Positions 9,727 through 27,871 are shown, numbered from the stretch's first letter. The stretch is 64,000 nt of DNA from a virus (IMGVR_UViG_3300025117_000028:126285-190284); one strand, 5' to 3'. A program made the numbers and translations. Notes: a model not told the origin generated them from the sequence alone.

Positions 9727-10076
9727 AGCATCTCCAGTGTAATACCCAACTCTTTTAACATAGATAAGTCAAAAGCTTTTATATACCGTACTGGATAAAC
9801 AAAACTTTTTACACGACTTTGTATTGAATATTCACTAGAACATATACGATACATATAATCTTCACGAAAAAGATCACGCGATGAGGACCAATAATAACAT
9901 TCTGTAAATCCAGGAACTTTATCTATAAATGCTTGTCTTAACTCAAAAATTGTTGGTAACCTCCAGCCATTTTCTTCTGAGTCTTTGGCTTGATTCCAAG
10001 TCATTAGTCCTTGGGTTGGTCCCCAAACCCATCTGTTATTGAAGTCAATTGTAAAACCATTGATTTCTTTAAACAT
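9723..10076 (-). CDS. DUF1566/C-type-lectin-fold protein (divergent paralogue)
   Basis: MTWNQA, GWRLPTIFEL, YWSSS, PVRYI. Confidence 0.8.
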   Translation of the reverse strand: MFKEINGFTIDFNNRWVWGPTQGLMTWNQAKDSEENGWRLPTIFELRQAFIDKVPGFTECYYWSSSRDLFREDYMYRICSSEYSIQSRVKSFVYPVRYIKAFDLSMLKELGITLEML

Positions 10077-10346: not shown

Positions 10347-10724
10347 TTAACGTACACAACGCGCATAGTGATAAAAATCTTTAAGATCGAAGTTGGAGAA
10401 ACCTCTATTAAAATCAATAAGGTAAACACCACTGGGAAGAACATTACAAGATGTTGTTGTCCAAAACTTTTTATTTCTCATTGATTCGATGATTTCTTTA
10501 GGTCCATCATCAAATAGACTAGTAAGTTCTGATCTTGTAGGAAGTTTTCCCCCTTGTTTTTTTGCCCAATCCATGGCTTCGTCCCAAGTCATTGATTTTT
10601 CTGCAATTGGTCCCCACTCTAATCCGGTCGCAGGATCTTTAATCCAAGTTGTTTCTTTAACAGGTTGATTATGTTCGCATTCTTGACATAGTTCCTGTAG
10701 TTTTTCAAGTATTTTACAAGTCAT
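10347..10724 (-). CDS. DUF1566/C-type-lectin-fold protein with MTCKILEKLQELC leader
   Basis: DPATGLEWGP, MTWDEA, GKLPTRSEL, YARCVR; retains GCGCGTTGTGT at the 3' end. Confidence 0.88.
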   Translation of the reverse strand: MTCKILEKLQELCQECEHNQPVKETTWIKDPATGLEWGPIAEKSMTWDEAMDWAKKQGGKLPTRSELTSLFDDGPKEIIESMRNKKFWTTTSCNVLPSGVYLIDFNRGFSNFDLKDFYHYARCVR

Positions 10725-10735
10725 GATTTCTCCTA

Positions 10736-11140
10736 TTAAAGTCGCACACAACGCGCAAAACTTCTATTTGTATAATCCCAATAAATTTTACCTTTACTAA
10801 AAAATACATACTCTGAAAGACCTTTTGTATTAGGATGAGGCAATGATGTCCAAAGATATTTATTTTTCATTCCACTCTTAATTTCTTCTGGACCATTTTC
10901 AAACAAATCAATGAGTTCTACTCTTGTTGGGAGTCTTCCTCCTTGTTCCTCAACCCAATCTTTGGCTTTTTTCCAAGTCGTTCTTTTTTTTAAAATTAGT
11001 CCCCATTCTAATCCAGTTCGAGGATCTTTATACCATTCTTTCATTACAATAATTGGTATTTCTAGATCAACTTCCTGGTCATATCTTTTGCATAGTTTTT
11101 CGCATAGTTCTTGGAATTCTTGAAGTATTTTGCCTATCAT
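10736..11140 (-). CDS. DUF1566/C-type-lectin-fold protein
   Basis: DPRTGLEWG, GGRLPTRVEL, FARCVR; retains GCGCGTTGTGTGCG. Confidence 0.85.
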   Translation of the reverse strand: MIGKILQEFQELCEKLCKRYDQEVDLEIPIIVMKEWYKDPRTGLEWGLILKKRTTWKKAKDWVEEQGGRLPTRVELIDLFENGPEEIKSGMKNKYLWTSLPHPNTKGLSEYVFFSKGKIYWDYTNRSFARCVRL

Positions 11141-11847: not shown

Positions 11848-12231
11848 CTAAGGCCGCACACAACGCGCGTAGAGGTGGTAAAGTTGATAGTCGTAGAGAA
11901 CGAGACCGTCGTAAAAACTCACGTAAAACGCGTCGTTCGGTCTGAGAACACATGAAGTCACAGACGACCAGAATGTTTTATCTTTCATTGGTTTTTTGAT
12001 TTCTTCTGATCCGTTTTTAAATAAATCAAAAAGTTCTATTTGAGTTGGGAGTCGTCCTCCTTGTTTTTTAGCCCAAGCCATAGATTTTTGCCAAGTCATT
12101 CGTTCTTTTGCAATTGGTCCCCACTTTAGTCCAGTCGCAGGATCTTTGATCCAGACTGTTTCTTCAACAGGTTGATTATGTTCACATTCTTGACACAGTT
12201 CTTGTAATTTTTCAAGTATTTTGCAAGTCAT
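11848..12231 (-). CDS. DUF1566 protein, DGR target with partly drifted variable repeat (11848-11973)
   Basis: CLec motifs; NNC-rich 3' end finishing TACGCGCGTTGTGTGCGGCCTTAG, followed by TCTTTTTGAAAATTTGAAACT. Confidence 0.85.
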   Translation of the reverse strand: MTCKILEKLQELCQECEHNQPVEETVWIKDPATGLKWGPIAKERMTWQKSMAWAKKQGGRLPTQIELFDLFKNGSEEIKKPMKDKTFWSSVTSCVLRPNDAFYVSFYDGLVLYDYQLYHLYARCVRP

Positions 12232-12903
12232 GATTTTTTCCTGTTGTTATAGAGGTAATTCTTCTTTAATACTATTATTCTCTTTAAATCCTAAATCATT
12301 AAGAGTTTTACGGATTTGATCTGCTGACCCATCCATCCAATAGGTATTACCAGTAAGGATGGTTTCATCGAAAATATTTTCGAGTAAGAAGATTTCATCT
12401 TCATCAAGATCATCAAGTAAATCAAAAGATAGATCGAATGTATCTTTTCTAACAATGGTGACTGTATACCCTTGTCTATTCTCTGCCTCAAAATTGTCTA
12501 AGCAATAATAGAAATCTGAATATTTCATAGTTCCTCTCTTAAGAGATTGATTTTCGTTATTGTTTAATTTATTTTTTTCATTTTTCAATAGATATAAAAT
12601 ATGTTCTTGAGAAACTTTAATGTTTACGAAGATTTTTGACAAGAAATTTAATCCACTTATGCACAATGAAAGGAAAGCACATAGGCCACAATAAAGATAA
12701 TAGTAACAAAACACACGAAAGTTCTTCATATGGTTCTGTTCCTTTTAGTTCGTATAAAAAATATAAATGGCCAAATCTATATATAACAATTCCTATAAAG
12801 ATTGTTAACAACCATAAATACAATGGAATTTCTGGAGCATTAAACATTAATATAAATGCCATGCCCACAAACCAAATAACATTGATTAATTTATATAGAA
12901 TAT

Positions 12904-13173
12904 TCATTCGGCTATTCTTAATAAAATTAGATACCCAATTAAATCTAATAGAGTATCTTCATTGTCTTCGGTTTGATTTAATATTCGACTTAGTTTATCA
13001 TCGATTCTGACCTTTAATTGTTCTATTTTGTCGGCTTTTGAAAATATACGAACAGGATCAAAGGCAGCGTTTCCATATTTCTTATTTTTCTCAATTAGTA
13101 ACTCAAGAACTCTTTCTAACACAAGTTTAACTTTTTCTATAGTTTCATTGTGTTCGTCTCTGAAAATTGCCAT
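12904..13173 (-). CDS. Nucleotide-modification-associated domain 1 (Nmad1/DUF1599-like) protein
   Basis: KNKKYGN, VRIDDKLSRI, DTLLDLIGY. Confidence 0.75.
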   Translation of the reverse strand: MAIFRDEHNETIEKVKLVLERVLELLIEKNKKYGNAAFDPVRIFSKADKIEQLKVRIDDKLSRILNQTEDNEDTLLDLIGYLILLRIAE

Positions 13174-13460
13174 TAGTAGATAACCTCATCTAGGTTAATT
13201 TCTTTTGGAGTCTCTACATATTGAGTTTTACGGAGTGGGTTTCCTACGGATTTTGTTGTAATATTTGCGGCACATTGTTTACAAAACAAGCCCTCTTTAT
13301 TTACTTCGTGTCCTTTAGTAACCTTAAGAGTTTCGTATGTCTCTTTATCTTTTACTGTATACTCTACAAGACGAATTTCTGTAATAAGTTTTTCGGGTGT
13401 ATCATGAATAACATGATTACATTTTTCACAACGGAAACACATACTTTTTCCCTCCCAGGA

Positions 13461-13787
13461 TTAGTATTTTACGCAGATTACATTACCAATTCCACTTTTA
13501 ATAATATTATTAACGTTTTCGTATAATAATCCTATTTGATTAGTTCCTAATATTTCAGGTTCATTAGGAAGTGACCAAAAATATTTACCTTTCATACGGA
13601 GTTGAATTTCTTTCGGTCCAAATTGAAATAAGTTAAAGAGTTCTATCTGTTTAGGGAGTCGTCCTCCTTGCTTTTCAGCCCAATCCATGGCCTCTTTCCA
13701 TTTCATTAATTTGTCTGCGATTGGTCCCCATTTTATTCCAGTTTTATAATCTTCATCCCATCCCCGATAATCATTTTCTTGAATCAT
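13461..13787 (-). CDS. DUF1566/C-type-lectin-fold protein (divergent C-terminus)
   Basis: DYKTGIKWGP, GGRLPKQIEL, FWS, VICVK. Confidence 0.8.
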   Translation of the reverse strand: MIQENDYRGWDEDYKTGIKWGPIADKLMKWKEAMDWAEKQGGRLPKQIELFNLFQFGPKEIQLRMKGKYFWSLPNEPEILGTNQIGLLYENVNNIIKSGIGNVICVKY

Positions 13788-13788
13788 T

Positions 13789-14169
13789 TTAATCTCCACA
13801 TATGCAACGTACACGATAAAGGTTATCTTTGTTATCATAGTATAAATGATTAAGATAAAAATTTGCAGCCCAAACACTATCGCTATCACCTACATGAGAT
13901 GATGACCAATAACGATTATCTCCCATTCGTTTTTGAGTCTCTTCAGTTTGGTTATTGATTAGTTCAAGGAGTTCTACCCTTGTTGGAAGTCTTCCTTTTT
14001 GTTTTTCACACCATTTTACAGCTTCATCCCAAGTCATTTCTTTCTTAGAAATTGGTCCCCATTTTAACGTAGAAATGGGTATCTTGATTTGGTTTACTTC
14101 TTTAACAGGTTGTTTATATTCACATTCTTGACATAATCCTTGTAGTGTTTCAAGTATTTTGCAAGTCAT
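13789..14169 (-). CDS. DUF1566/C-type-lectin-fold protein with MTCKIL leader
   Basis: WGPISKKEMTWDEA, GRLPTRVEL, YWSSS, YRVRCI. Confidence 0.85.
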   Translation of the reverse strand: MTCKILETLQGLCQECEYKQPVKEVNQIKIPISTLKWGPISKKEMTWDEAVKWCEKQKGRLPTRVELLELINNQTEETQKRMGDNRYWSSSHVGDSDSVWAANFYLNHLYYDNKDNLYRVRCICGD

Positions 14170-14780
14170 AAAGTTCCCTTTATTGGAAATAGTTAATAAT
14201 GTAATAAGAAGTAATAAAAATAATTATTGATATATAAAAACATAAGTAAATAGTTCCTATCATATATACTTGAATAGTTCCATGAAAGCACGAATTAAAA
14301 TTATAGTTGGAATAATTAATAATAGGTAAGGAATTGTATATATGATTATTAATATTATTATTGAAAGGACTATTAACCCTAATAAACCTATATGTATTTT
14401 CATTGTTTTTTATTAAATTGTTTTATGGAAATCATATTCTAAAGGAATAGTTTCCCAATTTAAGACTTTTTTATAATAGCTATTAAAGTCTTTACAAGGG
14501 TCTTTTGCATTATCATCAAAGTAAGAATTAATAGCATAAAGTAAACTAGGATATTTATTATAAAGATGTTGATAAGTTTTTGTTAGTGTCATCCCTTTCT
14601 CAACTAATTCTTGAGCTTTTTGCGCTCTTCCAAGCGCTATTTTTGTTCCTAATTTCTTTGAAAATTGATCTGGTTTTGTGTTTTTATTACCCGAATGAGA
14701 TGCGGCCCATCCAATAATTCCATTATTTAAAATGACACAAGTTAAGTAGTTTTTATAATAAAATACTTTATATGGTGTAT

Positions 14781-15227
14781 TCATATTGCTTCTCCTATGG
14801 ATGTGGGTATAGGCCAAGATAATGGCCAATTCATGAGTAGTTCATCTAAATTATTAGATTGTCGAACAAGAGTATGACGAGGAACAGTATGAACATTTCG
14901 GGCAAGAGCAGCTTCTACACTTATACCAAAGTAACAGAAATTAACTTGATAATTTGCTTTTATTGCGGCATTATAATAAGGTTCAATTGCCCATTTAGTT
15001 AGATTTGTATTATCTATGATAATAGTTTCTGCTTTAGCAAATAATGCTAAATGAAATTTATTTTGACAAGCTTTATGAGCTTGTTCAAGTTTTGTTGGAT
15101 CCCAATTATATGTCCCATCTTTTTCAAAGAAGTGATCTGCAGAACATATTACTGCATTGGGAAAATTTTTAGCGTAAGTACTTTTACCCGAACCAGATAT
15201 ACCAATGAAAATATTTACAGTTTTCAT
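14781..15227 (-). CDS. P-loop polynucleotide kinase (AAA_33/N4BP2-like)
   Basis: GISGSGKST, CSADHFF, IIIDNTN, ARNVHTVP. Confidence 0.8.
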   Translation of the reverse strand: MKTVNIFIGISGSGKSTYAKNFPNAVICSADHFFEKDGTYNWDPTKLEQAHKACQNKFHLALFAKAETIIIDNTNLTKWAIEPYYNAAIKANYQVNFCYFGISVEAALARNVHTVPRHTLVRQSNNLDELLMNWPLSWPIPTSIGEAI

Positions 15228-15261
15228 GGCGTTAAACTCCAACTTTAAATTTTCAAAAAGA

Positions 15262-15642
15262 CTAAGGCCGTACACAACGCACCGCGTAGTCACGTATTTT
15301 ATCGTTGTTGTTAGTATCACTATAGTTAAAGTTTACATACCATGCATTATAGACGTAATAGAAGCAAGATAACAAGGACCAGAATTTATTTGATTTCATT
15401 GGTTTAACAATATTTTTTGGTCCAAAATCAAATAGTTGGAGAAGTTCTGCTCTTGTTGGAAGTCTTCCGCCTTGTTTTTCAGCCCAGTCCATGGCTTCTT
15501 CCCAAGCCATTGGTTTTTCAGCAATTGGTCCCCATTCCAGTCCTGTTTTAGGATCTTTTTGCCAGATGACTTCTTTAACAGGTTGATTAGATTCACATTC
15601 TTGACATAATTCTTGTAGTTTTTCAAGTATTTTGTAAGTCAT
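15262..15642 (-). CDS. DUF1566 protein, DGR target with ameliorated variable repeat (15262-15384)
   Basis: FWS..AWYVNFNY..VRCVRP; contains AACAACAAC; conserved downstream TCTTTTTGAAAATTT. Confidence 0.82.
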   Translation of the reverse strand: MTYKILEKLQELCQECESNQPVKEVIWQKDPKTGLEWGPIAEKPMAWEEAMDWAEKQGGRLPTRAELLQLFDFGPKNIVKPMKSNKFWSLLSCFYYVYNAWYVNFNYSDTNNNDKIRDYAVRCVRP

Positions 15643-15668
15643 GGTTTTCCTCTTGATTAATTAATTAT

Positions 15669-15907
15669 TTAGTTGTTTTCAAATACAATCTTTTCTTGTA
15701 CTTTTGTACCGTCAAAATAACACAGATTTCTTTTTGCTTCTTCTAGGGAAGAGAAAGTATTTTTGGATCGGGGATCTAATGATATGAAGGAATCATAGGA
15801 CGACGCGTCATCCCACCACGACCACGCAAACAGATTAATCTGCGTTGGATGACATATGTAACGCTGCCGTATATGCTCGTTCTTTCGACAATGCGAACTT
15901 TCTTCAT
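15669..15907 (-). pseudogene. Frameshifted small hypothetical ORF
   Basis: MKKVRIVERTS... continues in another frame as ...LFAWSWWDD...EKIVFENN*; shift near 15830-15845. Confidence 0.35.
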
Positions 15908-15921
15908 TTTTTTTCTCTTGA

Positions 15922-15995
15922 TGGTCCCACTAGGATTTGAACCTAGACTCTCTGCTTATAAGGCAGAATAGCTAACCAATTACTACTATGGGACC
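15922..15995 (-). tRNA. tRNA-Ile(UAU), no encoded CCA
   Basis: Acceptor GGTCCCA/TGGGACC, anticodon arm TCTGC-CT TAT AA-GCAGA, T arm CTAGG TTCAAAT CCTAG. Confidence 0.85.
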
Positions 15996-16301
15996 CTGTT
16001 TAAAATTATTAATAATATTAGAATTGAATTTCTTTTTTATAATGGATAATGCCATTTTGACACAAATAACCTAATTGATATGAAGGAATTATAGGATGAA
16101 ATTTTTCCTTAGATATATATTTGCAATGATTTTTTATCAAGAATTCTTCCGTAATATAAGAATTTGTTTCATGATAAAAATTAGATTTCATTTTAATTTC
16201 AAAACCAACAAGTAAAATTACAAAAATTATAGCAATGATACCTGCTACTTTTACAATTTTAGTTTGATTTATTTTTAACTCATTTTAGATTTTAAAAAGG
16301 A

Positions 16302-16369
16302 TGACCATCGGTGGAACTGCCCCATCCCTTCCTACGTACCATGTAGGGCTCTCTCTTGAGCTGATGGTC
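16302..16369 (-). tRNA. Aberrant tRNA-like gene (Thr GGT-like)
   Basis: Acceptor GACCATC/GATGGTC, D arm GCTC/GAGC, CCTAC-AT GGT AC-GTAGG; non-canonical T loop. Confidence 0.45.
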
Positions 16370-16379
16370 TTTTGAAGAG

Positions 16380-16446
16380 TGGAGCCGTTGGAATCGAACC
16401 AACCTCCGTTCATGACCGTAGCCAAAAACGTCTCCCAGAGTGCCCC
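16380..16446 (-). ncRNA. tRNA-Ala/tmRNA-TLD-like mini RNA without an anticodon loop
   Basis: 5' GGGGC pairs with 3' GCTCC-A (G3.U70-type pair), canonical GTTGG TTCGATT CCAAC T arm, central hairpin capped by C(UACG)G. Confidence 0.5.
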
Positions 16447-16539
16447 ATAAAATTAGTATGTAGCCCCTTCCGCGCTCATACTATATATCCTCTAGCTTTT
16501 TGAGTCAAAAGCCAAGGGTATTTACCTATGTAAGAAAGT

Positions 16540-16668
16540 TTATTCTTTGTGGAGATGTTCTTTGATATGTCCGCATGTTCGACTAGCGGCATCTAAGCCT
16601 AAAATGCCGACAATAGTCCCCAAGGCAGTAACTCCGATCCAGATTAGAGTATCTACGGCCCATTGCAT
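16540..16668 (-). CDS. 42-aa single-TM protein (not in ORF track), paralogue of 28250-28441
   Basis: AAGGAG RBS; MQWAVDTLIWIGVTALGTIVGILG vs MQFILDSIIWLVITALGTFLGLLG. Confidence 0.65.
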   Translation of the reverse strand: MQWAVDTLIWIGVTALGTIVGILGLDAASRTCGHIKEHLHKE

Positions 16669-16682
16669 ATGTACTCCTTGAT

Positions 16683-17279
16683 TTAACCCTCTAGCAGAGG
16701 AAGGCGAGCATCATTAGTCGCTAAACCAAGACTGGTTTCGTTTGGATACTCAAGGCTTTGGAGATACTTGTCCAAGTCTTTTCCGTCCTTGGCATTGGCA
16801 AGATTGTAAATTTTTACCCCTGCTTTCTTAGCCAGACGGCAAAGTTGCGCAGTGTCACCAGTAGGATCTTTCTCGAAACAAGTGATCATAAAAGAACTAG
16901 GATCGTTCAAGTTGTCTCCAAGAATCATGTAGCTAGTGCGTGCCATGATCTTGCGAGTCGGCGTTTTGAGATGAGACCAGTTGATTTCGACATTGTTGCC
17001 TTCTTCATTGACACCAAGTCGATACCAATTTTGCTCTGCAATACAGTAGGCTTGACGGCTAATCCTATTGTGTTGACTGGGATGGTTATTGAAGTTTGTC
17101 CAAGGCAAATATACGCTACACCTAAAGCCCGCTCCTTCTTCAAAGGCTTTCGAGACATTCGTTTCTCCACCAAGTCGAGCAATAAATCCCAACTTAGAGA
17201 GACGTTTGGCAAACGCCGTAAAACGGTCCAAATTTTCTTGACTCACTTCCCGATCTGCTGAACCAGTGTAAAAACGCAT
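16683..17279 (-). CDS. SLOG/DprA-like Rossmann-fold protein (degenerate paralogue of 27368)
   Basis: YTGSADRE, AFEEGA, YLPW.NFN.H, ILGDNLNDPSSFMI, IYNLA. Confidence 0.65.
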   Translation of the reverse strand: MRFYTGSADREVSQENLDRFTAFAKRLSKLGFIARLGGETNVSKAFEEGAGFRCSVYLPWTNFNNHPSQHNRISRQAYCIAEQNWYRLGVNEEGNNVEINWSHLKTPTRKIMARTSYMILGDNLNDPSSFMITCFEKDPTGDTAQLCRLAKKAGVKIYNLANAKDGKDLDKYLQSLEYPNETSLGLATNDARLPLLEG

Positions 17280-17356
17280 GGCTTACCTCCTCAGGTAGCT
17301 TTTTAAACAACACAAAGCATTAAATCTTTGTGTCAATACTTGAATTTTCAAAAAGA

Positions 17357-17677
17357 TCACGGCCGCACACAACGCGCGTCGTAGTCGTTATCCTTATTGT
17401 CGAGGCCGACGTAGCCGTAGTCGAAATTCACGTACCACGCGAAGACGGAGTTGTAGACGTAGGACGACGACGACCAGAATAGACCTCTCAATCCCTCCAG
17501 CCCCGGAGCTGTCTTCCCGGTTTCCCTATCAATGGCATTCATTAATTCATTGACTCCCGGAAGATACCAGTCGTCAAAGCCAAGGTGCTTCTCTGCGTTG
17601 AGCTTGGTTGGAAGGTTTATTGCCTCTTGCCAAGTGCATTGAAATTGTTTACTAATTTTGTTGGTATAGTCTTTCAT
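17357..17677 (-). CDS. DUF1566 protein, DGR target with intact variable repeat (17357-17479)
   Basis: LGFDDWYLPGVNEL, FWSSSS..AWYVNF.YG.V...ARCVRP; VR codons almost all NNC. Confidence 0.9.
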   Translation of the reverse strand: MKDYTNKISKQFQCTWQEAINLPTKLNAEKHLGFDDWYLPGVNELMNAIDRETGKTAPGLEGLRGLFWSSSSYVYNSVFAWYVNFDYGYVGLDNKDNDYDARCVRP

Positions 17678-19020
17678 ATTAGATATAACCTCCTGAAATG
17701 AAAGCTGTATAATCTGAATTAGTTTGGAAACCTTCTTGGTCTAACGCTATTCTTACCTGGTTAATATCAAAAGGATCCCAAAATACTTTATCAAAGCTAT
17801 AACAAAATTCCATTTCTTTAACAAGTCCAATACTTTCAAAATATTTAAATTCTTGAAATGTTTCCTCGCTTTTACAATAACGATATTTATTCCAGAATTT
17901 AACCGGACAAATATTTATTGTAAACATTCCAGGGTTATCAGGATCATCAAGAAAAACATAATAAAAATCTGAACCTGTAGTTTTCATATTAATCCTTACA
18001 CAGGAATATTATTTATGGTATTTTTTGTCAATTCTTCTTTTACCATTTGCTCTATTTCTAGATTGAAGCTTTTAACTGTAATTTCAAATGCTTCGTCAAA
18101 ATCAGGATTTTGTAATTTTTCTTTAATTTCTTTCCATGTCATATTTTTGTACGCCAAACAACATAGAAAGGCATAAGTATTTATTAGCGTAAGTAGTCTT
18201 TGTTCAATTGAATTAGGATCATTTCTATTATCTAGTGCGAGAGAAGCAGCCATGTGTTTTGCATCAAGAATCATTTTTTGTACTTCTTCGTTATTTTTAA
18301 AAATAAGCATATTTGCTCCTTATTGATGAAAGCGTTTTTGATAGTCTTTTCCATATTTGCAAAGTTCAACAATATATTCTTCTGTCAACAAATCACGAAC
18401 TTCTTTCTCGAAGTCTACATTGTCAATGTTTGCGAGTATAACGGCTTTGATAAATCCTTTGATAAGACCACGGATAAGAAATGGGAAAGGTACTGTCATC
18501 CATAACGGATGTTGAGATGTCCAAGTAGAAAACGCAGCACTAATTGTTTGAGAGAGGCTTTCTTCAACTAAAGTATACATATAATCCTCCTCGGATTATT
18601 GGCCTAAGCCTGCTTCATATTGCAATACATAATCTAAGGCATGTTGAAGATCTGCATCATTGAAGTTAAGATTGTTTAGTTTAGTTTTTAAATCATCAGG
18701 AACGAAGACCCATCCAGGTCTACTTTGTAAATATTCAATATAATTTTTGTCCATTTTTTGTGCAACATTATCTTTCATAGCTAGAAAAAGTCTTGACGCA
18801 CAAACCCATTTTGTTTTTAGATTGTCTTGTAACCTAGCAAAAGTTCCTGGTTGCCAAGAATCAATGAAATTTTTATTTTTTAGTAAATTTTTGCACAAAG
18901 ATTTTTTGTCAAGATTTATATCGAGATTAAGATTATAACAATCTAATACATATTTATCTTTATTATAAAGAGTGCATGTAATCATGATTCTCTCCAAGTT
19001 TCAAATTTTCAAACTGATCA

Positions 19021-19328
19021 CTACCGCACACAACGCGCGTAGAGGTAGTTAACCTTAAAGTCGTAGTTGACGAAGCCGTAGCCGAAACCCACGTACCACG
19101 CGTAGTCGGTGTCGTTGACGTGGGACGACGACGACCAGAAATTCTTATCGCGCATGGGCCAACTATTTCCTCCGGCCACTCGTCACAGAGTTGTACCAGT
19201 TCCCACCGTTTGGCTACACGTCCTCCTTGCTTTTTTGCCCACTCCTGAGCCTCGTTCCATGTCATTCTTTTCTCAGAGATTGGTCCCCATTCTTTTCCGG
19301 TTTCCATATCTTTGATCCACTTGCTCAT
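19021..19328 (-). pseudogene. DUF1566 DGR target with a 1-nt frameshift just upstream of an intact VR (19018-19140)
   Basis: MSKWIKDMETGKEWGP...EEIVGP then MRDKNFWSSSSHVNDTDYAWYVGFGYGFVNYDFKVNYLYARCVR* in a shifted frame at GGCCCATG (~19153-19160). Confidence 0.75.
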
Positions 19329-19801
19329 GGCGCGGTCCTCTTGGTTATATCGATTTCGTCGCGCAGTTTGTTGATCTTGTGAGCAATGTCGTTGATAGAA
19401 CAAACAAGGTCCAAGGCAATATTGATTCCAATCGAATCAATAAGCTCATCCAACAAACCCTGATAGTGTCCCAACAGGTACGCCTGGTTTGACGATGTTT
19501 TTACGTCGTAATTGTAACGCCAATTGTGTCCTCCACTTTTCCTGCACCTCATGTATTCGTTGAGTCTCTCGCTCATGGAGCAGTCCTCCTGGCCTGATTT
19601 AGCTTTTTCAGAAGAAAGCCTATACATCCAAAGATGTCAAACTTGTTTATTTCTATTGGATTTTTATGCCACCTTCCGATCCAATAGCTATTCTTTTTTA
19701 GGATTCTTGGCCACTCGTCAGGGCCAATGATGATGTGCCAAATTATGATACGAATGTTGACGAAATCGCCACTCATGGCTCCTCCCAGGTATCAAGACCG
19801 A

Positions 19802-20110
19802 TCACGGCCGCACACAACGCGCGTAGTTGTAGCTATCCTTACTGACGTAGTCGACGAGGCCGTAGTTGAAATTCATGAACCACGCGCAGCCGGTGTGGCC
19901 ACCGTCGTATGAGGACCAGAATATTTTCCCCTTCATTGTTACTTTAATCTCTTCTAGGCCTTCATGAAAGAGGTAACACAACTCCCAAGGTTTAGCCTGC
20001 TTTCCACCCAGTTCCTTACACCAGGCTTCTGCCTCATCCCAGGTCATCCTTTCTTTAGATTCAGGTCCCCATTCTAATCCGGTTTTAGGATCTTTCTGCC
20101 AGATTGTCAT
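19802..20110 (-). CDS. DUF1566 protein, DGR target with variable repeat (19802-19921)
   Basis: DPKTGLEWGP, FWSS, AWFMNFNYGLV, YARCVRP; NNC codons. Confidence 0.88.
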   Translation of the reverse strand: MTIWQKDPKTGLEWGPESKERMTWDEAEAWCKELGGKQAKPWELCYLFHEGLEEIKVTMKGKIFWSSYDGGHTGCAWFMNFNYGLVDYVSKDSYNYARCVRP

Positions 20111-20525
20111 AAGTTTTCCTCATTGTTTTGACTATGTGTTGGTTAGGTATGATATTAGGATTCCGTTCTTTGAAAACTGAGTATTCCTCTCCGTGAAGAT
20201 CATTAAGAAATGTTCCGACTGCTCCAGAACGAGAAATTCCAGCAGCACAATGTATGACAAAATTTTCTGTCTCATGTCCTTTAACAAAATCTAAGATTTG
20301 TTTGGCATGTTCTTCTTGAAAAAGAATATACTCAGGATGTTCCGGAACAGTTTCATCAATATCGAAGAACACTAGAGAAAGTATTCTTATATTTTGTGCG
20401 AGAGTTTTTATTACTTCGGCTTCTTCTAATGTATCATTGATAGAAATGATATTAATATTAGGACGAAATTCTTGTTTTTCAAGTATCTCTTTTACGAAAG
20501 TTCTTGGGAATATCCAAATCTTCAT
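20085..20525 (-). CDS. Cys-dependent PTP/dual-specificity phosphatase
   Basis: VIHCAAGISRS (CX5R), FFDI, PN.H. Confidence 0.85.
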   Translation of the reverse strand: MKIWIFPRTFVKEILEKQEFRPNINIISINDTLEEAEVIKTLAQNIRILSLVFFDIDETVPEHPEYILFQEEHAKQILDFVKGHETENFVIHCAAGISRSGAVGTFLNDLHGEEYSVFKERNPNIIPNQHIVKTMRKTYDNLAERS

Positions 20526-22690
20526 GATTCTTCTTCTCCATCGCTCGTTCTTTTCCGCATTGCTTCGCTTGTGCTTAATTATGGCGCAGTCCTCCTGATG
20601 TCGGTGGCGGCGAGCTTGTCCGGGCCGATGCTTCCGTCTGGCTGGAGGTAGCCTGGTTTGCAATTTTCAACCAAACAAGATGAGCAGGGCATGAGGTCAC
20701 CTAATGTACACCCGTTGTCACACTCGTCTTCATTGTACAACCCACCGAAGTTGTTGGTGGTCAGATGTTGGAGTGTTATTCCTTTGACGTTCATGTTGGC
20801 TCCCTCTGGATTGTCCGGGCCGATCTTGCCGTCGGGCTGGAGATAACCGTATTCGCAACCTAACATGAAAGCACATCTCTCCATCGCCGTGCAGGAACAC
20901 ACTACTTCCTGTGTTTCTCTCGCCATCCTGTAGAGCCCGTGGTATCCGTTCGCGTCGCGGTGTTGCCGTGCGGCGTCGATCACGTACATGCTATCTCCTT
21001 GGATTACTTGTTTCTTGGTACAGTTTCACGGCATCGTCGGCGACTTGTGCCTCCTTGGCTTGTTTGATCTTGCGGTACACTGTTACCGCGTTGTCGGCGG
21101 TTTCCCAGGAGATGTCTCCCCCGTTGTACCGCAGTGTTTCAATGAACGCCGCCGCCCATATCAGCCGCTCCATGTCGATGGATGTGGTTGTGGGCCTTTG
21201 GTTTTCCTTGAAGTCATCGATAATATTTTCAGTAAAGCTCATTTCGCCTCCTTGTCTTGTTTATCTTCTTCTTCATTTTCTTCTCTTTCTTGTATCGCAT
21301 AGAGAATTGCTTCTCGAATAGTCTTTTTCCATTGTTCTTTTTCAATAATGAAAGTCGTAACAAGGTCACTTGGAACTTCCATGGGACATTCTTGGAAACC
21401 AGAAGAAGAAATAGCCCAATGTCCTCTGTCGTCAGAGATAAGAGCATAGCCTTCTTGATCTTCTAACCAATTAATCAATTCACTATCAGTATAAGTATTC
21501 ATGGTTTTTCCTCAAGGTTAAACTTAATTTTTTTCATGTGTCTTATAATATTGATAATAGAGAGGAAGAACTTGCTGTATAAATTCACTTGGGAGAACAA
21601 TATTCCATAAAAGTTTATAAACACTTGAAATAGCAGACGGACCGCGTATTTCTCCTGAAGTCAGCATGTCCATTATTTCTTTATAGGCCATATAATGTTT
21701 ATCATAAAAAGTTACAGAAGTTTTTTCCTTCCAATATGGGCCTTCGTTTTCTGGAAATCTTTGTTCTTTAAGTGTTACTTGAAAGTAAGACCCTTGATTC
21801 CAATAACCGAATTCAAAAACTAATTGTTGTTGATCTACATAATATTTAGGTTCTTGTCGTGGAGGAGCAACATCTGAAGATAAGTCTTGTATGAACTGAA
21901 TACTTAATCTCATAATTTACTTCTATTATAAAAGGTTGTTTCTTTTGTCATAAACTTTTATTTTTCCCAGCCTACATTTTTACTGGCTTGGACATGATCA
22001 CATGTCCGTTTTTTTTCTACTATTACTTTACTGTAATACTTGCCAGTTTCACCTTGAAACCAAGGATCACCGGCTGGTGCAAATCTCCATTTATATAATA
22101 ATTCTTCATACGAAGCATTTCAATCCGTTGTTTTTGTTGCTCTGTCATATTTCCTCCATAGAAACAAGAGAGTTGATAAAGCCTATATATCCCTTGTCTG
22201 AAAAGGTCTGCTTTATATATTGATACCTTTTATTGTAAGCCAAATAATATCTGCCATCAGAACTACATTGTTTAAGAAGTCTAAGAATAATGTCAAATTT
22301 AGTTTCAAGCAGGCCAAACTGATCCTTGCTGATTGCCTTTGCTTCTTCTTCGAATTCATCAAATAAGTCCAAAATAGCTTGTTCATAGCCACATTCATTG
22401 CACATATTAGCCTCTATTTTTCTCTTTAATTTCATTAAGAAGTTCTACAATTGTATCCGCCTCACTTTTTTTACGTGGAGGTGGTGGAGGTGGAGGAGGT
22501 GGCTTTGGAAAAGATGGCGGTGGATTTATCCGATACCCTTTATAAAAAGATTTTGGGAGAGTATAAAGTAAACATATATAAATAAAAAAGATTGAGACAC
22601 CAATAAACATGATTGTTAAAAAACATGAAAACATAATTTCTCCTAAAAGTTAAGTTTATTTTTATTTCCTTTTTCTTAGCATCTCCAAAT

Positions 22691-23060
22691 GGTATTTATT
22701 GCATAAATTATTGTGCCGCAAATTATTCCAGTTATAGCAATCCACATGCGAAGTTTATCTTCACTTTGATGTAAAAGACGAAAACGCTATAAGCAGCATA
22801 ATAAATATAGTTAAAAATGCTAGTGCTTCGCTACATCCCATAATTTTCTCTTTTATACCTGAATTTTGAAATTCTTCTTTAAAAGCTTTTCGTTCTCCTA
22901 AATATATAATTATAAGGACAAGTAAAATAGGAATTATGGAACACCAAAAACACATAGTTTCTCCTAGAATTTATCCCCAAAGGGTGTTTATTGTATAAAT
23001 TATTGTGCCACAAATCATTCCCGTTATAGCAATCCACATACGAAGTTTATCTTCACTTTC
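22691..23060 (-). repeat. Duplicated ~75-bp segment encoding a small hydrophobic peptide (SEDKLRMWIAITG.ICGTIIY)
   Basis: Near-identical copies at ~22691-22767 and ~22983-23059. Confidence 0.75.
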
Positions 23061-23761
23061 CATATTTCTCCTTTTAAGTAAGGAAATATTCCTAGTTATC
23101 TAAAACAATACGATGATTTACTTGTACAAGTTTAAATTCTATAACTTCAAGAATAAATAAAGGCTTAGTTAGGCGCAAACATCGTTGAGTATATTCATTA
23201 TTCAAACAATGTTTAGCCCGTCTTTCAACTACAGCAAGTTTTGTTGAAGGAATATAGGTCATGTAATCTGAAGGATTACGTGCATGGTCGTTATACCATA
23301 AATTAACTTCGGGAAACCAAATGCCATAGACATTTTCAGTTTGCATATCGTTTTAACTCTCTTTTATTTTATTAGAGATATCTATAAGTTTAATTTTTTA
23401 AAGCGCAAATACTTGTTTTATTAACTTCACTGAAAAATCATTTTTACAATTAAAGAGTATAGATAAATAAGTAACTATTGTTTTATCAAAAATAATTTCA
23501 TATTTGATTTCTTCTTTAATGTTGTTATCTACAACGTATTTAGATACTTCTTGTCTTAAAATCTTTGCAATTTTTTTATATACATTATCAGTAGGGATTT
23601 TATATTCAAGGTCTTTTAGTAAAAATTCTATCTTCATAATTTCTCCTAAAAGTTGAATTTATTTTTTTATTAAAAATTATCTTAAGCAGTAAGAAATATA
23701 ATAAGAAAAACTAAAACAACACATATTATGATGTATGAAAAGATACACATGTTTTTCACCT

Positions 23762-24025
23762 TTATAAGGTTTCAATTTCTAGTTGTTCAAAATGTATAAG
23801 TTGACTATTATGATACCAATATCCCCATTCACTAATTCGATACCAATTCGGTATGTGATGGGACTCTCTTATATAGCTTATTCTTGGCTCTAGTTTTTCA
23901 CAACGCGGTTGGAAAAGAGTGTGTTCAGGTATTCTATTTCCACGATTTTCATCTTTTAATACGTATATATAAGGATCTAGTAAAAGAACTTTATCTCCTA
24001 TTTCAAATTTAGTTTCTTGAGACAT
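23762..24025 (-). CDS. F.IGD.V family small protein
   Basis: MSQETKFEIGDKVLLLD behind AAGGAG; ends YHNSQL...EIETL like its paralogues. Confidence 0.55.
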   Translation of the reverse strand: MSQETKFEIGDKVLLLDPYIYVLKDENRGNRIPEHTLFQPRCEKLEPRISYIRESHHIPNWYRISEWGYWYHNSQLIHFEQLEIETL

Positions 24026-24859
24026 ATCTCTCCTTAAAACGATAAAGTCTCCCTTCTCTCTCCTGACCACTCTCATCCCTCTAAAGGATAAAAATGCGCA
24101 CAAAATGTTATTATTGTTGATTTTATTGAGGAGAGAAGAAAGGAAGAAATGATTTATTTGAGAGGATGATCCCATAGTTGATCAAACTCTGGTCTCCATC
24201 CTCGGGGAGTTGTTCTGCAATGTAAATGAATGACGATGTCTTTACTTACTGTATGATAACAACGATGCCCTTTAAGATAAGGGCGTGAAAAAGAACCCTT
24301 AGAATTCATTTTGAATTTTGTTGCAGTATCTATATTGGAAACAATTAATGGATTTCTTTTAAGCATACATTTTAAGTATGAATCTCGATCGTCAAGAAAT
24401 GCGCAACTAGCGCTTCTATTAAGATTAAATGATCTCCCTTGCCCCATTAATGAAATTGTAATCAGATTATTACTCATTGTATGAATTTCATGAACGAGTA
24501 ATCGTTCTTTATAATGAGTAAGAAATCTCTTACATTCTATATGGTTACCCTTTACAACAAAGGGTTGAGAATTTTTAGAAAAGCAAATATAAATATGCGG
24601 AGCATCGAATATTCCTTTTTTAAGAGGAAATTCGGCCAGTACTTTATATTGAGGATAATTTTTTCTTTTAGTTTCTTCTTTTAAGACTTGATGGTATAGA
24701 TTTTTTTGTTTTTGAATAAGCATAGTTACTCCAAGAAAATGGGTCAGATGGAGCTTCAGTATGCAGTATTAATCGAAGCCCACCCAACCCGTTATGGAAT
24801 CTTGCCTTCAGTATTTTATAAATATATTAGCGAAGGCAGTATTTCCTTTTTTTTGAAGA

Positions 24860-24930
24860 CGGCATCACTAAGATTCATACTTAGATCTTCTGGTAGACAC
24901 CAGAGGCTCTCTCCTTTGAGCTATGATGCC
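24860..24930 (-). tRNA. tRNA-like gene with non-standard anticodon arm (copy X1)
   Basis: Acceptor GGCATCA/TGATGCC, D stem GCTC/GAGC, TCTGG-TGTCTA-CCAGA (6-nt loop), T arm CTAAG TATGAAT CTTAG. Confidence 0.5.
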
Positions 24931-24938
24931 ATTTTTTA

Positions 24939-25018
24939 TGCCCGAAGTCGGGTTTGAACCGATAGGCTCATTAGCCAGGATATTTTAACCCTGGAGATAC
25001 CATTCCTCCCATTCGGGC
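24939..25018 (-). tRNA. Variant duplicate of tRNA-Leu with remodelled anticodon arm
   Basis: Same acceptor GCCCGAA/TTCGGGC and similar T arm as 25131-25213; CCAGG-GTTAAAATAT-CCTGG arm. Confidence 0.5.
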
Positions 25019-25040
25019 TACTTTTTTTTTAAGAAAAAGA

Positions 25041-25115
25041 CGGCATCACTAGGATTCGAACCTAGATTTTCAACAGCATAAGGGCCGGACGTTCTCCCTT
25101 TTAAACTATGATGCC
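25041..25115 (-). tRNA. tRNA-like gene with disrupted anticodon arm (copy X2)
   Basis: Acceptor GGCATCA/TGATGCC, canonical CTAGG TTCGAAT CCTAG; no 5-bp/7-nt anticodon arm. Confidence 0.5.
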
Positions 25116-25130
25116 CTAATTTTTATGTAA

Positions 25131-25213
25131 TGCCCGAAGTCGGACTTGAACCGACACGACCTATTGGTCAGAAGATTTTAAGTCTTCCGGGTATACCATT
25201 CCCCCATTCGGGC
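25131..25213 (-). tRNA. tRNA-Leu(UAA), no encoded CCA
   Basis: GAAGA-CT TAA AA-TCTTC, long variable arm, GTCGG TTCAAGT CCGAC. Confidence 0.92.
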
Positions 25214-25217
25214 TACT

Positions 25218-25454
25218 TTATAAGGTTATAGTTTCCATTTCATTAAGAAGTTTAAATTGACTTCTATGATAATAAGCTGGACTACCATTTAACATAACCC
25301 AATCAGGGTATTTTTCGTAACAACTCATTACAGTATATATTTGATAAGGTTTTAAGGCTCCTTCTCCGTAGGATCTTCCTCGCTTTGTAAGAGTCACACG
25401 ATAAATATTTCTATTTGTAAGAAATACTTGGTCTCCAATTTTAAATTGCGGCAT
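25218..25454 (-). CDS. F.IGD.V family small protein
   Basis: MPQFKIGDQVFLTN...YHRSQF. Confidence 0.6.
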   Translation of the reverse strand: MPQFKIGDQVFLTNRNIYRVTLTKRGRSYGEGALKPYQIYTVMSCYEKYPDWVMLNGSPAYYHRSQFKLLNEMETITL

Positions 25455-25460
25455 ATAACC

Positions 25461-25709
25461 TCATAGAATTATAACTTCTATTTCTGTGATAGGAATGAAT
25501 TGACTAACGTGAATCCAATATGTGTTTCTGTTCAATCGATACCAATGTAGAAAGTCTAAATTTTCACCGGTTTGTGTTATTGTATATTTTTGCTGATTTT
25601 TTAGATAATCTTTTATAATTAGTGTCCCTTTGACTTCATCTGTATTCATGAGATAGACGTTACCATCGGTTAAGAATACTTCATCTCCGATTTTGAATTG
25701 TTGGCGCAT
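25461..25709 (-). CDS. F.IGD.V family small protein (start MRQQFKIGD; ORF-track extension overlaps tRNA-His)
   Basis: GGAG RBS; paralogy with 25218. Confidence 0.6.
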   Translation of the reverse strand: MRQQFKIGDEVFLTDGNVYLMNTDEVKGTLIIKDYLKNQQKYTITQTGENLDFLHWYRLNRNTYWIHVSQFIPITEIEVIIL

Positions 25710-25745
25710 ATCATTCTCCCAATCGAAGATGTTTTGTTTAATTAA

Positions 25746-25818
25746 TGTGACCGGTGGGAATCGAACCCACATCTTTGGGACCACAACCCAAAATTCTAGC
25801 CGTTGAACTACGGTCACC
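25746..25818 (-). tRNA. tRNA-His(GUG) with genomic G-1, no encoded CCA
   Basis: G-GTGACCG/CGGTCAC-A, TTGGG-TT GTG GT-CCCAA, GTGGG TTCGATT CCCAC. Confidence 0.92.
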
Positions 25819-25827
25819 ATCTATAAA

Positions 25828-26111
25828 AGTAGTTATCAGGTGTGCTATTACGCCAAAGGCCAGTCTACCATTAGTAGGTTAACACCCCAAATTGTCAGTT
25901 TAACTACCTACTTAAACATCCTGACAATCCCATTTTCATGGCTTGAGTCATCTGTTCCGTCGAACAGACGAGCAGTACGCATACAAGCTCAGGTCTTGTT
26001 TTTATTCACTGACGCGCCAGCAAGCTGCCGAACTCTTAAACGCCTTTGCAATGTTAAGGGGCCACTCTTTAAAAGATGGCTGCTTCTAAGCCCACTTCCC
26101 GGATAACCACT
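25828..26111 (-). ncRNA. Structured ncRNA containing a split mimic of the 23S rRNA uL11-binding domain (H43-H44)
   Basis: GGAAGTGGGCTTAGAAGCAGCCATCTTTTAAAGAGTG ... GCGTAATAGCACAC, enclosed by a 10-bp terminal stem AGTGGTTATC/GATAACTACT. Confidence 0.8.
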
Positions 26112-26139
26112 ATTTTTTAGTTTCAAATTTTCAAAAAAA

Positions 26140-26520
26140 TCACGGCCACACACAACGCGCGTAGAAGTCGATAGTCTTATTGTCGTAGCGGACGTAGCCG
26201 TAGTTGAAATTCACGTCCCATGCGTAGTCGGTGTAGCCGACGAGGAACGACGACGACCAGAATATCTTTGGATACATTGATATAATAATATTTTTCAAAT
26301 TAGAATCAAAGAGTTGAATGAGTTCACCTCTTTCGGGAAGTCTCCCTCCTTGTTCTTTTGCCCAATCCATGGCTTCTTGCCAAGCCATTGGTTTTTCAGC
26401 AATTGGTCCCCATTTCAGTCCTGTTTTAGGATCTTTTTGCCAAGTTGTTTCTTTAACCGGTTGATTGTGTTCGCATTCTTGACATAGTTCCTGTAGTTTT
26501 TCAAGTATTTTACAAGTCAT
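26140..26520 (-). CDS. DUF1566 protein, DGR target with intact variable repeat (26140-26262)
   Basis: MTCKILEKLQELC leader, FWSSS..AWDVNFNYGYV...YARCVWP; NNC codons; conserved downstream TTTTTGAAAATTTGAAACT. Confidence 0.9.
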   Translation of the reverse strand: MTCKILEKLQELCQECEHNQPVKETTWQKDPKTGLKWGPIAEKPMAWQEAMDWAKEQGGRLPERGELIQLFDSNLKNIIISMYPKIFWSSSFLVGYTDYAWDVNFNYGYVRYDNKTIDFYARCVWP

Positions 26521-27367: not shown

Positions 27368-27871
27368 TCATTTGTTTTCCTCTACGTATTTCTTGGCTTT
27401 TGCCAGGGTTTCTGGGTCTGCCAAGTTGTAGATTTTGATGTTATAGTGTTTGGCCATTCTGAGAGCTTGTTCTGTCCCTCCGACTTCTTTTGCATTTTTG
27501 GTCCAGCAGATTACGAATTTTACAGGTTGGTCTAGGTTTGGTCCTAGAATTTGGTTACAGGTTCGTGCTTGGAGTTTTTTGCCTCCAAGTCGTAGTGCAT
27601 CCCAATTTGGGTGAAATGATTTGGCCATCTTGAGAGCTTCTTCGGTTATATGGAAGTCGCTCGAAGTGTGATCATTAAATTTTGGCCAAGGAAGGAAGAT
27701 GTTTTTGTTTTCTGGATTACTTACGCCTGCTTCAAATGCAGCATCGGCTCCTTGTGCTGCTCCGCTGTAGAGTGTATAACCCTTCGCCTCAAATACTTTG
27801 GCAATTTGGGTCATGAAGTCACAGATTTCTTTTGGAGTTTCGCGCGAGCCAATTCCTGCGTAAGCTTTCAT
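27368..27871 (-). CDS. SLOG/DprA-like Rossmann-fold phage protein
   Basis: YAGIGSRETP, LYSGAAQGADAAFE, QILG, FVICWT, GGT.QA. Confidence 0.8.
   Translation of the reverse strand: MKAYAGIGSRETPKEICDFMTQIAKVFEAKGYTLYSGAAQGADAAFEAGVSNPENKNIFLPWPKFNDHTSSDFHITEEALKMAKSFHPNWDALRLGGKKLQARTCNQILGPNLDQPVKFVICWTKNAKEVGGTEQALRMAKHYNIKIYNLADPETLAKAKKYVEENK

Follow-up and report, generated by a model that had tools for sequence, protein, structure and literature searches.

Six small genes of the Lcl_C family, which has a C-type lectin (CLec) fold, in the genome of a groundwater phage of ~190 kb end in variable regions that are very probably products of a diversity-generating retroelement (DGR), and the template from which they were written is probably not encoded by the phage. 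The genes lie in IMGVR_UViG_3300025117_000028:126285-190284, a stretch of 64,000 nt which as a whole is called the window here. The G+C-rich framework of their 3' ends recurs in variable regions of a bacterium of the Desulfobacterota whose array of clustered regularly interspaced short palindromic repeats (CRISPR) holds a spacer matching the phage. Taken as a whole, the account that these ends are DGR products, copied from a G+C-rich template outside the phage by a core that resides in the host and acts in trans, is offered tentatively, as one that has not quite an even chance of being right.

Targets of DGRs are assumed to travel with their reverse transcriptase (RT) and template, and the DGRs of phages are thought to diversify tail adhesins. 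The phage described here presents another picture, with many apparently DGR-written regions on small lectins of cytoplasmic appearance, no writer in 94% of the genome and the framework present in a CRISPR-linked host.

The window corresponds to positions 129-64128, reversed, of a 125,446-bp record (G000), and the same phage is represented by a 190,340-bp scaffold (ENA ERZ28563683 scaffold_35). The phage sequence examined consists of the 125-kb record and 53 kb walked via other assemblies, which together make up 94.2% of the 190,340-bp scaffold, and excludes ~10.9 kb (scaffold_35 ~36.8-47.7 kb) at the far, tail-fibre end of the tail module. The phage has a G+C content of 36%, and G+C at third codon positions (GC3) is ~0.2 in native phage sequence. 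Phage, host bin and samples (groundwater metagenomes, e.g. PRJNA292723) are all public.

Results

Signature and composition of the variable regions

An initial annotation of the window had proposed six dispersed DGR variable repeats on stand-alone CLec proteins, and all six 3' ends are present on small, signal-less Lcl_C genes of the minus strand, each spanning TTCTGG to the stop codon (11848-11973, 15262-15384, 17357-17479, 19018-19140, 19802-19921 and 26140-26262; copies are named after their first position). They turned out to be unequal: four ends are fresh (26140, 19018, 17357 and 19802) and two are older and decayed (11848 and 15262), and the gene carrying the 19018 copy is frameshifted in the window. 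The same frameshift occurs in four assemblies, and the gene is intact, with 102 amino acids (aa), in L051, an assembly with one additional A.

Among the three freshest copies (26140, 19018 and 17357) 30 columns vary, distributed 15/14/1 over codon positions 1/2/3; with 19802 included the distribution is 17/17/4. Variable codons are NNC or NNT, with third positions held at C or T, and the intervening framework is invariant. The pattern among the copies is compatible with substitutions confined to template adenines (codon positions 1-2 of AAY codons). The DGR-type nature proposed for these ends is upheld by this codon-position signature together with the family assignment and predicted fold of the proteins. 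Pfam Lcl_C (PF07603; DUF1566; C-type-lectin fold) was matched by 8/8 genes tested, with E-values of 3e-19 to 5e-9, all above the gathering score. The AlphaFold2 model of the 17357 protein reached a predicted local distance difference test score (pLDDT) of 95.4 from a 50-sequence alignment; its best match in the PDB was 8q4e_A, the C-terminal domain of Legionella Lcl (E = 3e-4, template modelling score 0.60), followed by C-type lectin-like domains, namely snaclecs, CD94 and LOX-1.

Base composition separates the copies further. GC3 amounts to 0.83-0.85 in the three freshest copies, 0.78 in 19802, 0.59 in 11848 and 0.49 in 15262, and it is 0.15-0.24 in paralogues that show no trace of the framework and ~0.2 upstream of the variable region in genes of the 26140 type. 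We read this gradient as an age series, in which the fresh copies display a foreign, G+C-rich composition that sets in sharply at TTCTGG. The terminal 15-mer GCGCGTTGTGTGCGG was found nine times at up to three mismatches, where 0.15 occurrences are expected by chance, and 8/9 of these lie at the ends of Lcl_C genes. The 21-nt GC-rich end is invariant in the fresh copies, identical in several of the host copies described below and retained in old A+T-rich copies. Its conservation in old A+T-rich paralogues, synonymous sites included, speaks for a constraint at the DNA level, and the GC-rich 3' end is a candidate initiation of mutagenic homing (IMH) element.

The same framework in a CRISPR-linked bacterium

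When one genome per species was scanned (185,579 species), the central framework was found in 13 stretches, most of them from named Desulfobacterota (Desulfobacteraceae, Desulfobacula, Desulfobacterium, 'Deltaproteobacteria') and two labelled only Pseudomonadota/Proteobacteria. The 5' and 3' ends of the phage regions were also present in only one genome, the metagenome-assembled genome (MAG) Deltaproteobacteria bacterium RIFOXYA12_FULL_61_11 (MGSU01, 4.6 Mb, ~60% G+C). This MAG holds at least five variable regions with phage-type ends, two of them exact to the framework from TTCTGGTCGTCGTCG to GCGCGTTGTGTGCGGCCGTGA and the others a few bases off. The genes that share the framework encode a 138-aa signal-peptide protein, a 503-aa collagen-repeat protein and two PEGA-like proteins, and are typical cellular DGR targets, i.e. 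secreted or surface Lcl_C proteins. Identity between phage regions and a host copy (hC287a) is 78-84%, as against 76-83% among the phage regions themselves; such an equal, star-like relationship is expected of independent copies of one template.

The MAG contig C209 (L040 1817-3110) contains cas1 and a CRISPR array with 20 copies of a 36-nt repeat. Spacer 17, the only one in the array that matches the phage record, has its protospacer within the lectin gene block (Table 1). By this match the MAG organism is likely the host of the phage. The occurrence of the framework in the likely host's own variable regions, two of them exact, goes beyond the initial annotation and points to a writer outside the phage.

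Search for template, reverse transcriptase and Avd

The initial annotation had reported that RT and template were missing from the window, and adenine-tolerant, profile and blast searches agree in having found none there. Throughout the 125 kb no template repeat was detected by adenine-tolerant scan and blastn, the best non-self matches being the paralogues themselves, and a search for a short open reading frame (ORF) called over a template gave no candidates. The walked 53 kb comprise the capsid-to-baseplate module with large structural genes; they have neither an RT nor a template, and Lcl_C genes and relatives of DGR RTs or bAvd are likewise lacking. In the tail module (L079 10001-26414) three giant genes of 2137, 1435 and 1939 aa stand in a row. 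The only match of the phage to bAvd (PF22296) was sub-threshold (13.8 bits, inside a 402-aa ORF), tblastn yielded none, and HRDC was not searched.

A single RVT_1 match exists in the 125-kb record, a 261-aa gene at G000:C1:67970-68755, 3.8 kb beyond window position 1. Its best profiles are the retron types RT_II-A/III-A and St85, and it carries QGSPASP and YVDN (instead of YxDD) rather than the DGR motif IGxxxSQ ([ILV]GxxxSQ). Upstream of it lies a non-coding stretch of ~280 nt with visible inverted repeats (~67690-67970; L001:1160-1440), and two further Lcl_C genes follow at a distance of ~2 kb downstream. This RT and its upstream RNA were rejected as the writer, since no part of them looks like the variable regions and the DGR motif is missing from the RT.

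The MAG bin had no RVT_1 match, no bAvd, no DGR-RT relative and no template, and the one host four-helix-bundle gene (PF05635), considered as Avd, was rejected, since it is flanked by long ORFs (922-1305 aa) and neither an RT nor a template is close to it. The RTs of two complete DGRs from Desulfobacterota (L017 and L021, treated below) found no match as queries in the phage sequence examined or the host bin. The framework family was found in none of 60 relatives of the MAG. In IMG/VR, neither the 5' nor the 3' framework pattern was found; an exact 17-mer of the 3' end gave five matches in high-G+C contigs, dismissed as chance, and the capsid and Lcl_C proteins as queries retrieved no relatives apart from one weak one. 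Apart from contigs belonging to the MAG itself, the 5' pattern matched just one unrelated gene among JGI contigs. The terminase region had no match in INPHARED by megablast.

Populations and related phages

Parts of window 6.7-27.3 kb are represented, at 99.85-100% identity, in ten assemblies of different runs, each variable region being contained in 4-10 of them. Two of these assemblies, L049 and L052, show 17-18 clustered differences at 15466-15613, in the N-terminal part of the 15262 gene, which make it resemble the 26140 gene; the cluster has the appearance of a gene-conversion tract for which the population is polymorphic. A JGI contig of a related phage (P0003) codes for a 126-aa relative that shares 65% identity with the 26140 protein and bears a further version of this framework. 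The 17357 protein has an orthologue in another phage, 55% identical, whose C-terminus is unrelated.

The Lcl_C gene family and its surroundings

Small genes on the minus strand make up a block at window 10.3-26.6 kb, in which at least nine ORFs end in A-R-C-V-R or a close variant. A family scan counted 18 Lcl_C matches in the 125,446-bp record, 11 of them in the window. The proteins measure 102-134 aa (102-127 aa in the six listed by the initial annotation) and their N-terminus is not hydrophobic. Together they are a birth-and-death family of small signal-less proteins, the members of which are compiled in Table 1. Neighbouring genes encode an RNA ligase, two DprA-like proteins, a dCMP deaminase, an AAA_33 kinase, a DSPc-like phosphatase and a helix-turn-helix protein. 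The DprA-like recombination-mediator genes are found at 16683-17279 (phrog_768) and 27368-27871 (assigned by eye), one of them directly downstream of the freshest variable region. Terminase, portal and capsid genes lie further along on the opposite strand, so that the Lcl_C genes occupy a non-structural region of small genes, as the initial annotation had it.

In five of the six genes an A+T-rich flank of ~22 nt with the consensus TnnTTTGAAAATTTGAAAC stands immediately 3' of the stop codon and is linked to the variable region irrespective of the gene body. Its core TTTGAAAAT occurs only nine times on that strand in 125 kb. In the host, variable-region genes (L020 866-976, 1682-1853) are followed by tandem repeats of ~55 nt with CTGCAGGGA(A/G)GCA units, self-matches of which show 95-98% identity.

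Table 1. Lcl_C genes and associated features, with coordinates counted from the first nucleotide of the window.
Feature	Coordinates	Strand	Remarks
Lcl_C gene, 126 aa	26140..26520	-	fresh variable region 26140-26262, GC3 0.83 vs 0.23 upstream
A+T-rich flank, ~22 nt	26118..26139	-	directly after stop; same flank after stops at 19020, 17356, 15261 and 11847
Lcl_C gene, 102 aa	19802..20110	-	fairly fresh variable region 19802-19921; one-codon deletion, few framework changes
Protospacer	19381..19411		spacer 17 of the MAG CRISPR array, 30/31 bases, E = 1.4e-10
Broken Lcl_C gene	19021..19327	-	1-nt deletion near 19155; fresh variable region 19021-19140 in downstream frame
Lcl_C gene, 106 aa, different N-terminal subfamily	17357..17677	-	freshest variable region 17357-17479, framework unchanged
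Lcl_C gene, 126 aa	15262..15642	-	decayed variable region 15262-15384
Lcl_C paralogue 13789-14169 (Pfam-supported) and Lcl_C-like ORF 13461-13889 (by eye only, without separate family match)	13461..14169	-	composition fully native; no trace of template framework
Lcl_C gene, 127 aa	11848..12231	-	half-decayed variable region 11848-11973
Two adjoining Lcl_C paralogues, 10347-10751 and 10736-11140	10347..11140	-	A+T-rich ends, GC3 0.15-0.24; GC-rich GCGCGTTGTGT(G/A)CG end retained
Additional Lcl_C match	9780-9998
Lcl_C paralogue, 129 aa	7817..8206	-	outside range 11848-26520

Discussion

Relation to known DGR systems

The closest likeness in target architecture is offered by the DGR of Legionella pneumophila with LdtA and by other DUF1566/Lcl_C (CLec2, 'category d') targets, which share a ~120-nt C-terminal variable region on Lcl_C ending in A-R-C-V-R with NNC/NNT codons (Wu et al. 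2018, PMC5758913). About half of the category d targets are likewise short, domain-only proteins (PMC5758913). Unlike the Legionella type, the phage has no RT, Avd or template in the sequence examined, its proteins bear no lipoprotein or signal sequences, the copies number at least 18, and the carrier is a large, probably lytic phage.

Two complete DGRs, of Desulfobacterium sp. N47 (L021) and Desulfobacteraceae Umea1_bin-2529 (L017), belong to the same phylum as the host and possess the same central framework, GCGTGG..CGTG..TTTC..C.ACGGC..CGTC, as well as Lcl_C targets, one of 143 aa among them. Their cassettes are ordered target, bAvd, template with AAC runs, RT (IGNLTSQ, YVDD, MutS_I tail) and small Lcl_C target. 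Their 5' and 3' ends are unlike those of the phage family, which rules them out as the writer of the phage regions, and they serve as a guide to the expected look of the missing core. Umea1_bin-2529 (L017; L015, L018, L026) combines its complete DGR with at least five variable regions on four contigs and is itself a multi-target cellular DGR.

Dispersed targets served by one template and recognised by a shared 3' end are also known from Treponema denticola and other cellular DGRs with remote targets at >100 kb (PMC5758913). There the targets reside on the replicon of the RT, or at least in its genome, unlike the phage case, and remote targets across the boundary between phage and host were not expected by Wu et al. 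(PMC5758913). The DGR of Bordetella phage BPP-1 (mtd, avd, TR, brt, with TR the template repeat) resembles the present case in that the variable region closes a lectin-fold gene at its 3' end and has a GC-rich terminal element, and it resembles the mechanism proposed below in its trans-acting core and in the sufficiency of short 5' homology (Guo et al. 2011, PMC3240598). It differs in that the tip of a tail fibre is diversified, a GC-rich hairpin stands 3' of the IMH and the core is adjacent; neither hairpin nor adjacent core is present in the phage studied here. Experiments demonstrated that avd-TR-brt acts in trans and that IMH, hairpin and at least 8 bp of 5' homology are enough for targeting (PMC3240598, PMC5758913). 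In those DGR clades that are mainly phage-encoded, most viral targets are tail proteins (Roux et al., PMC8144416). Our searches of the literature brought up no report of orphan phage variable regions that occur naturally and match those of a host.

How the variable regions may have been written

According to the explanation we prefer, a G+C-rich template family that is not carried by the phage would have written both the phage regions and the secreted or surface Lcl_C variable regions of the CRISPR-linked Desulfobacterota host. The DGR core (RT, Avd and template RNA) would be located in the host cell, on the chromosome or on another mobile element, and act in trans. It would copy adenine-mutagenised cDNA into any DNA that offers the cognate GC-rich 3' end GCGCGTTGTGTGCGGCCGTGA and short 5' homology, TTCTGGTC..., for which replicating phage genomes would qualify, and the phage has kept this 3' end also in paralogues that have otherwise drifted to A+T-rich codons. 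That the regions entered the phage by such trans retrohoming, rather than by capture, is held with somewhat less than even confidence; it is favoured because the foreign stretch stops at the variable-region limits on either side, no two copies are alike, the end used for homing has been conserved, and trans action and minimal target needs were shown experimentally (PMC3240598, PMC5758913).

Several observations weigh against this explanation. The template repeat or a DGR RT was found in none of the host bin, 60 MAG relatives, GTDB species genomes, IMG/VR and JGI metagenome contigs, and the assignment of the short MAG contigs to one organism was made by binning. The unread ~10.9 kb of the phage lie at the tail-fibre end of the structural module, the usual location of phage DGRs. 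BPP-1-type targeting needs a GC-rich hairpin, and DNA folds of the 3' flanks of the phage copies gave no hairpin beyond chance (z-scores -1.1 to +0.9); the phage 3' flank is moreover A+T-rich and unlike the host flank. To our knowledge, there is no report of a cellular DGR acting naturally on a phage that infects the cell. The variable regions are identical among the assemblies except for one base, 19122 C-to-T in L051, which falls on a variable site, and at the host locus both variable regions are identical in three assemblies. There is no sign of ongoing diversification, and on present evidence at assembly level the regions are frozen products and not a phage system of demonstrable activity. 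The initial annotation had proposed that they would be relics of past capture if phage and host had neither template nor RT and reads no adenine-restricted variation; this is borne out in part, in that 94% of the phage and the host bin yielded no template or RT and the assemblies no variation of this kind.

Recombinational capture is a serious rival, as recombination between paralogues is visible in the population. Here a DGR would have diversified host genes only, and the phage would repeatedly have taken up host segments of ~125 nt, which recombined with its own Lcl_C paralogues through homology or microhomology, without any reverse transcription on phage DNA. The tract in L049 and L052 is a case of paralogue recombination, two DprA-like proteins are phage-encoded with one beside a fresh copy, the framework is common to host and phage, and the lack of visible activity and of a hairpin would find an explanation. 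We nevertheless consider capture unlikely, for it would need at least 4-6 independent, exactly bounded imports on just 15-21 nt of flanking homology, and both boundaries coincide exactly with the limits of the variable region, as retrohoming predicts. Furthermore, at the variable sites none of the phage regions is the same as a host region (70-84% identity), although few host copies are known.

Should the RT, Avd and template belong to the phage lineage itself, being encoded in the unread 6% or recently lost, the host regions would have arisen as side effects of the phage DGR or through gene transfer. The unread 10.9 kb at the end of the tail module are the usual home of phage DGRs and the age series of copies speaks of a long association, but the framework codons TCG, GCG, GTC and GGC (GC3 ~0.85) suit a genome of 60% G+C and not a long-term resident of a phage of 36% G+C. 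Since the host targets are typically cellular as well (signal peptides, collagen, PEGA-like domains) and the structural module in other assemblies comprises large structural genes only, with no RVT_1 match, a phage-borne DGR is quite improbable. Far less credible still is an origin without any DGR, by which ordinary paralogues would be under diversifying selection at binding residues and homogenised elsewhere by gene conversion. Gene conversion among the paralogues is real and no template is at hand to prove adenine specificity, yet selection would not fix third positions at C/T over ~20 codons while positions 1-2 take all bases. Nor can it account for G+C-rich synonymous sites in an A+T-rich genome or for nucleotide-identical frameworks in a bacterium, and the central part of the framework matches the templates of complete Desulfobacteraceae DGRs.

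Conclusions

If trans retrohoming from the host is taken a step further, a lytic jumbo-type phage would keep a battery of lectin genes bearing the homing signal of a host DGR, and hypermutation by the host would rewrite phage proteins during infection and supply diversified intracellular binders to a phage spared the cost of encoding such a retroelement, a scenario that we regard as possible but doubtful. As the initial annotation supposed, the lectins may be intracellular binders and may serve in anti-defence, a suggestion on which only their missing signal peptides bear. If it is true that a cellular DGR writes into an infecting phage, DGRs would constitute a channel of interaction between host and phage, and surveys that start from the RT would overlook a whole class of targets. 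Under the reading of repeated capture, a traffic of hypervariable cassettes between host and phage would be documented.

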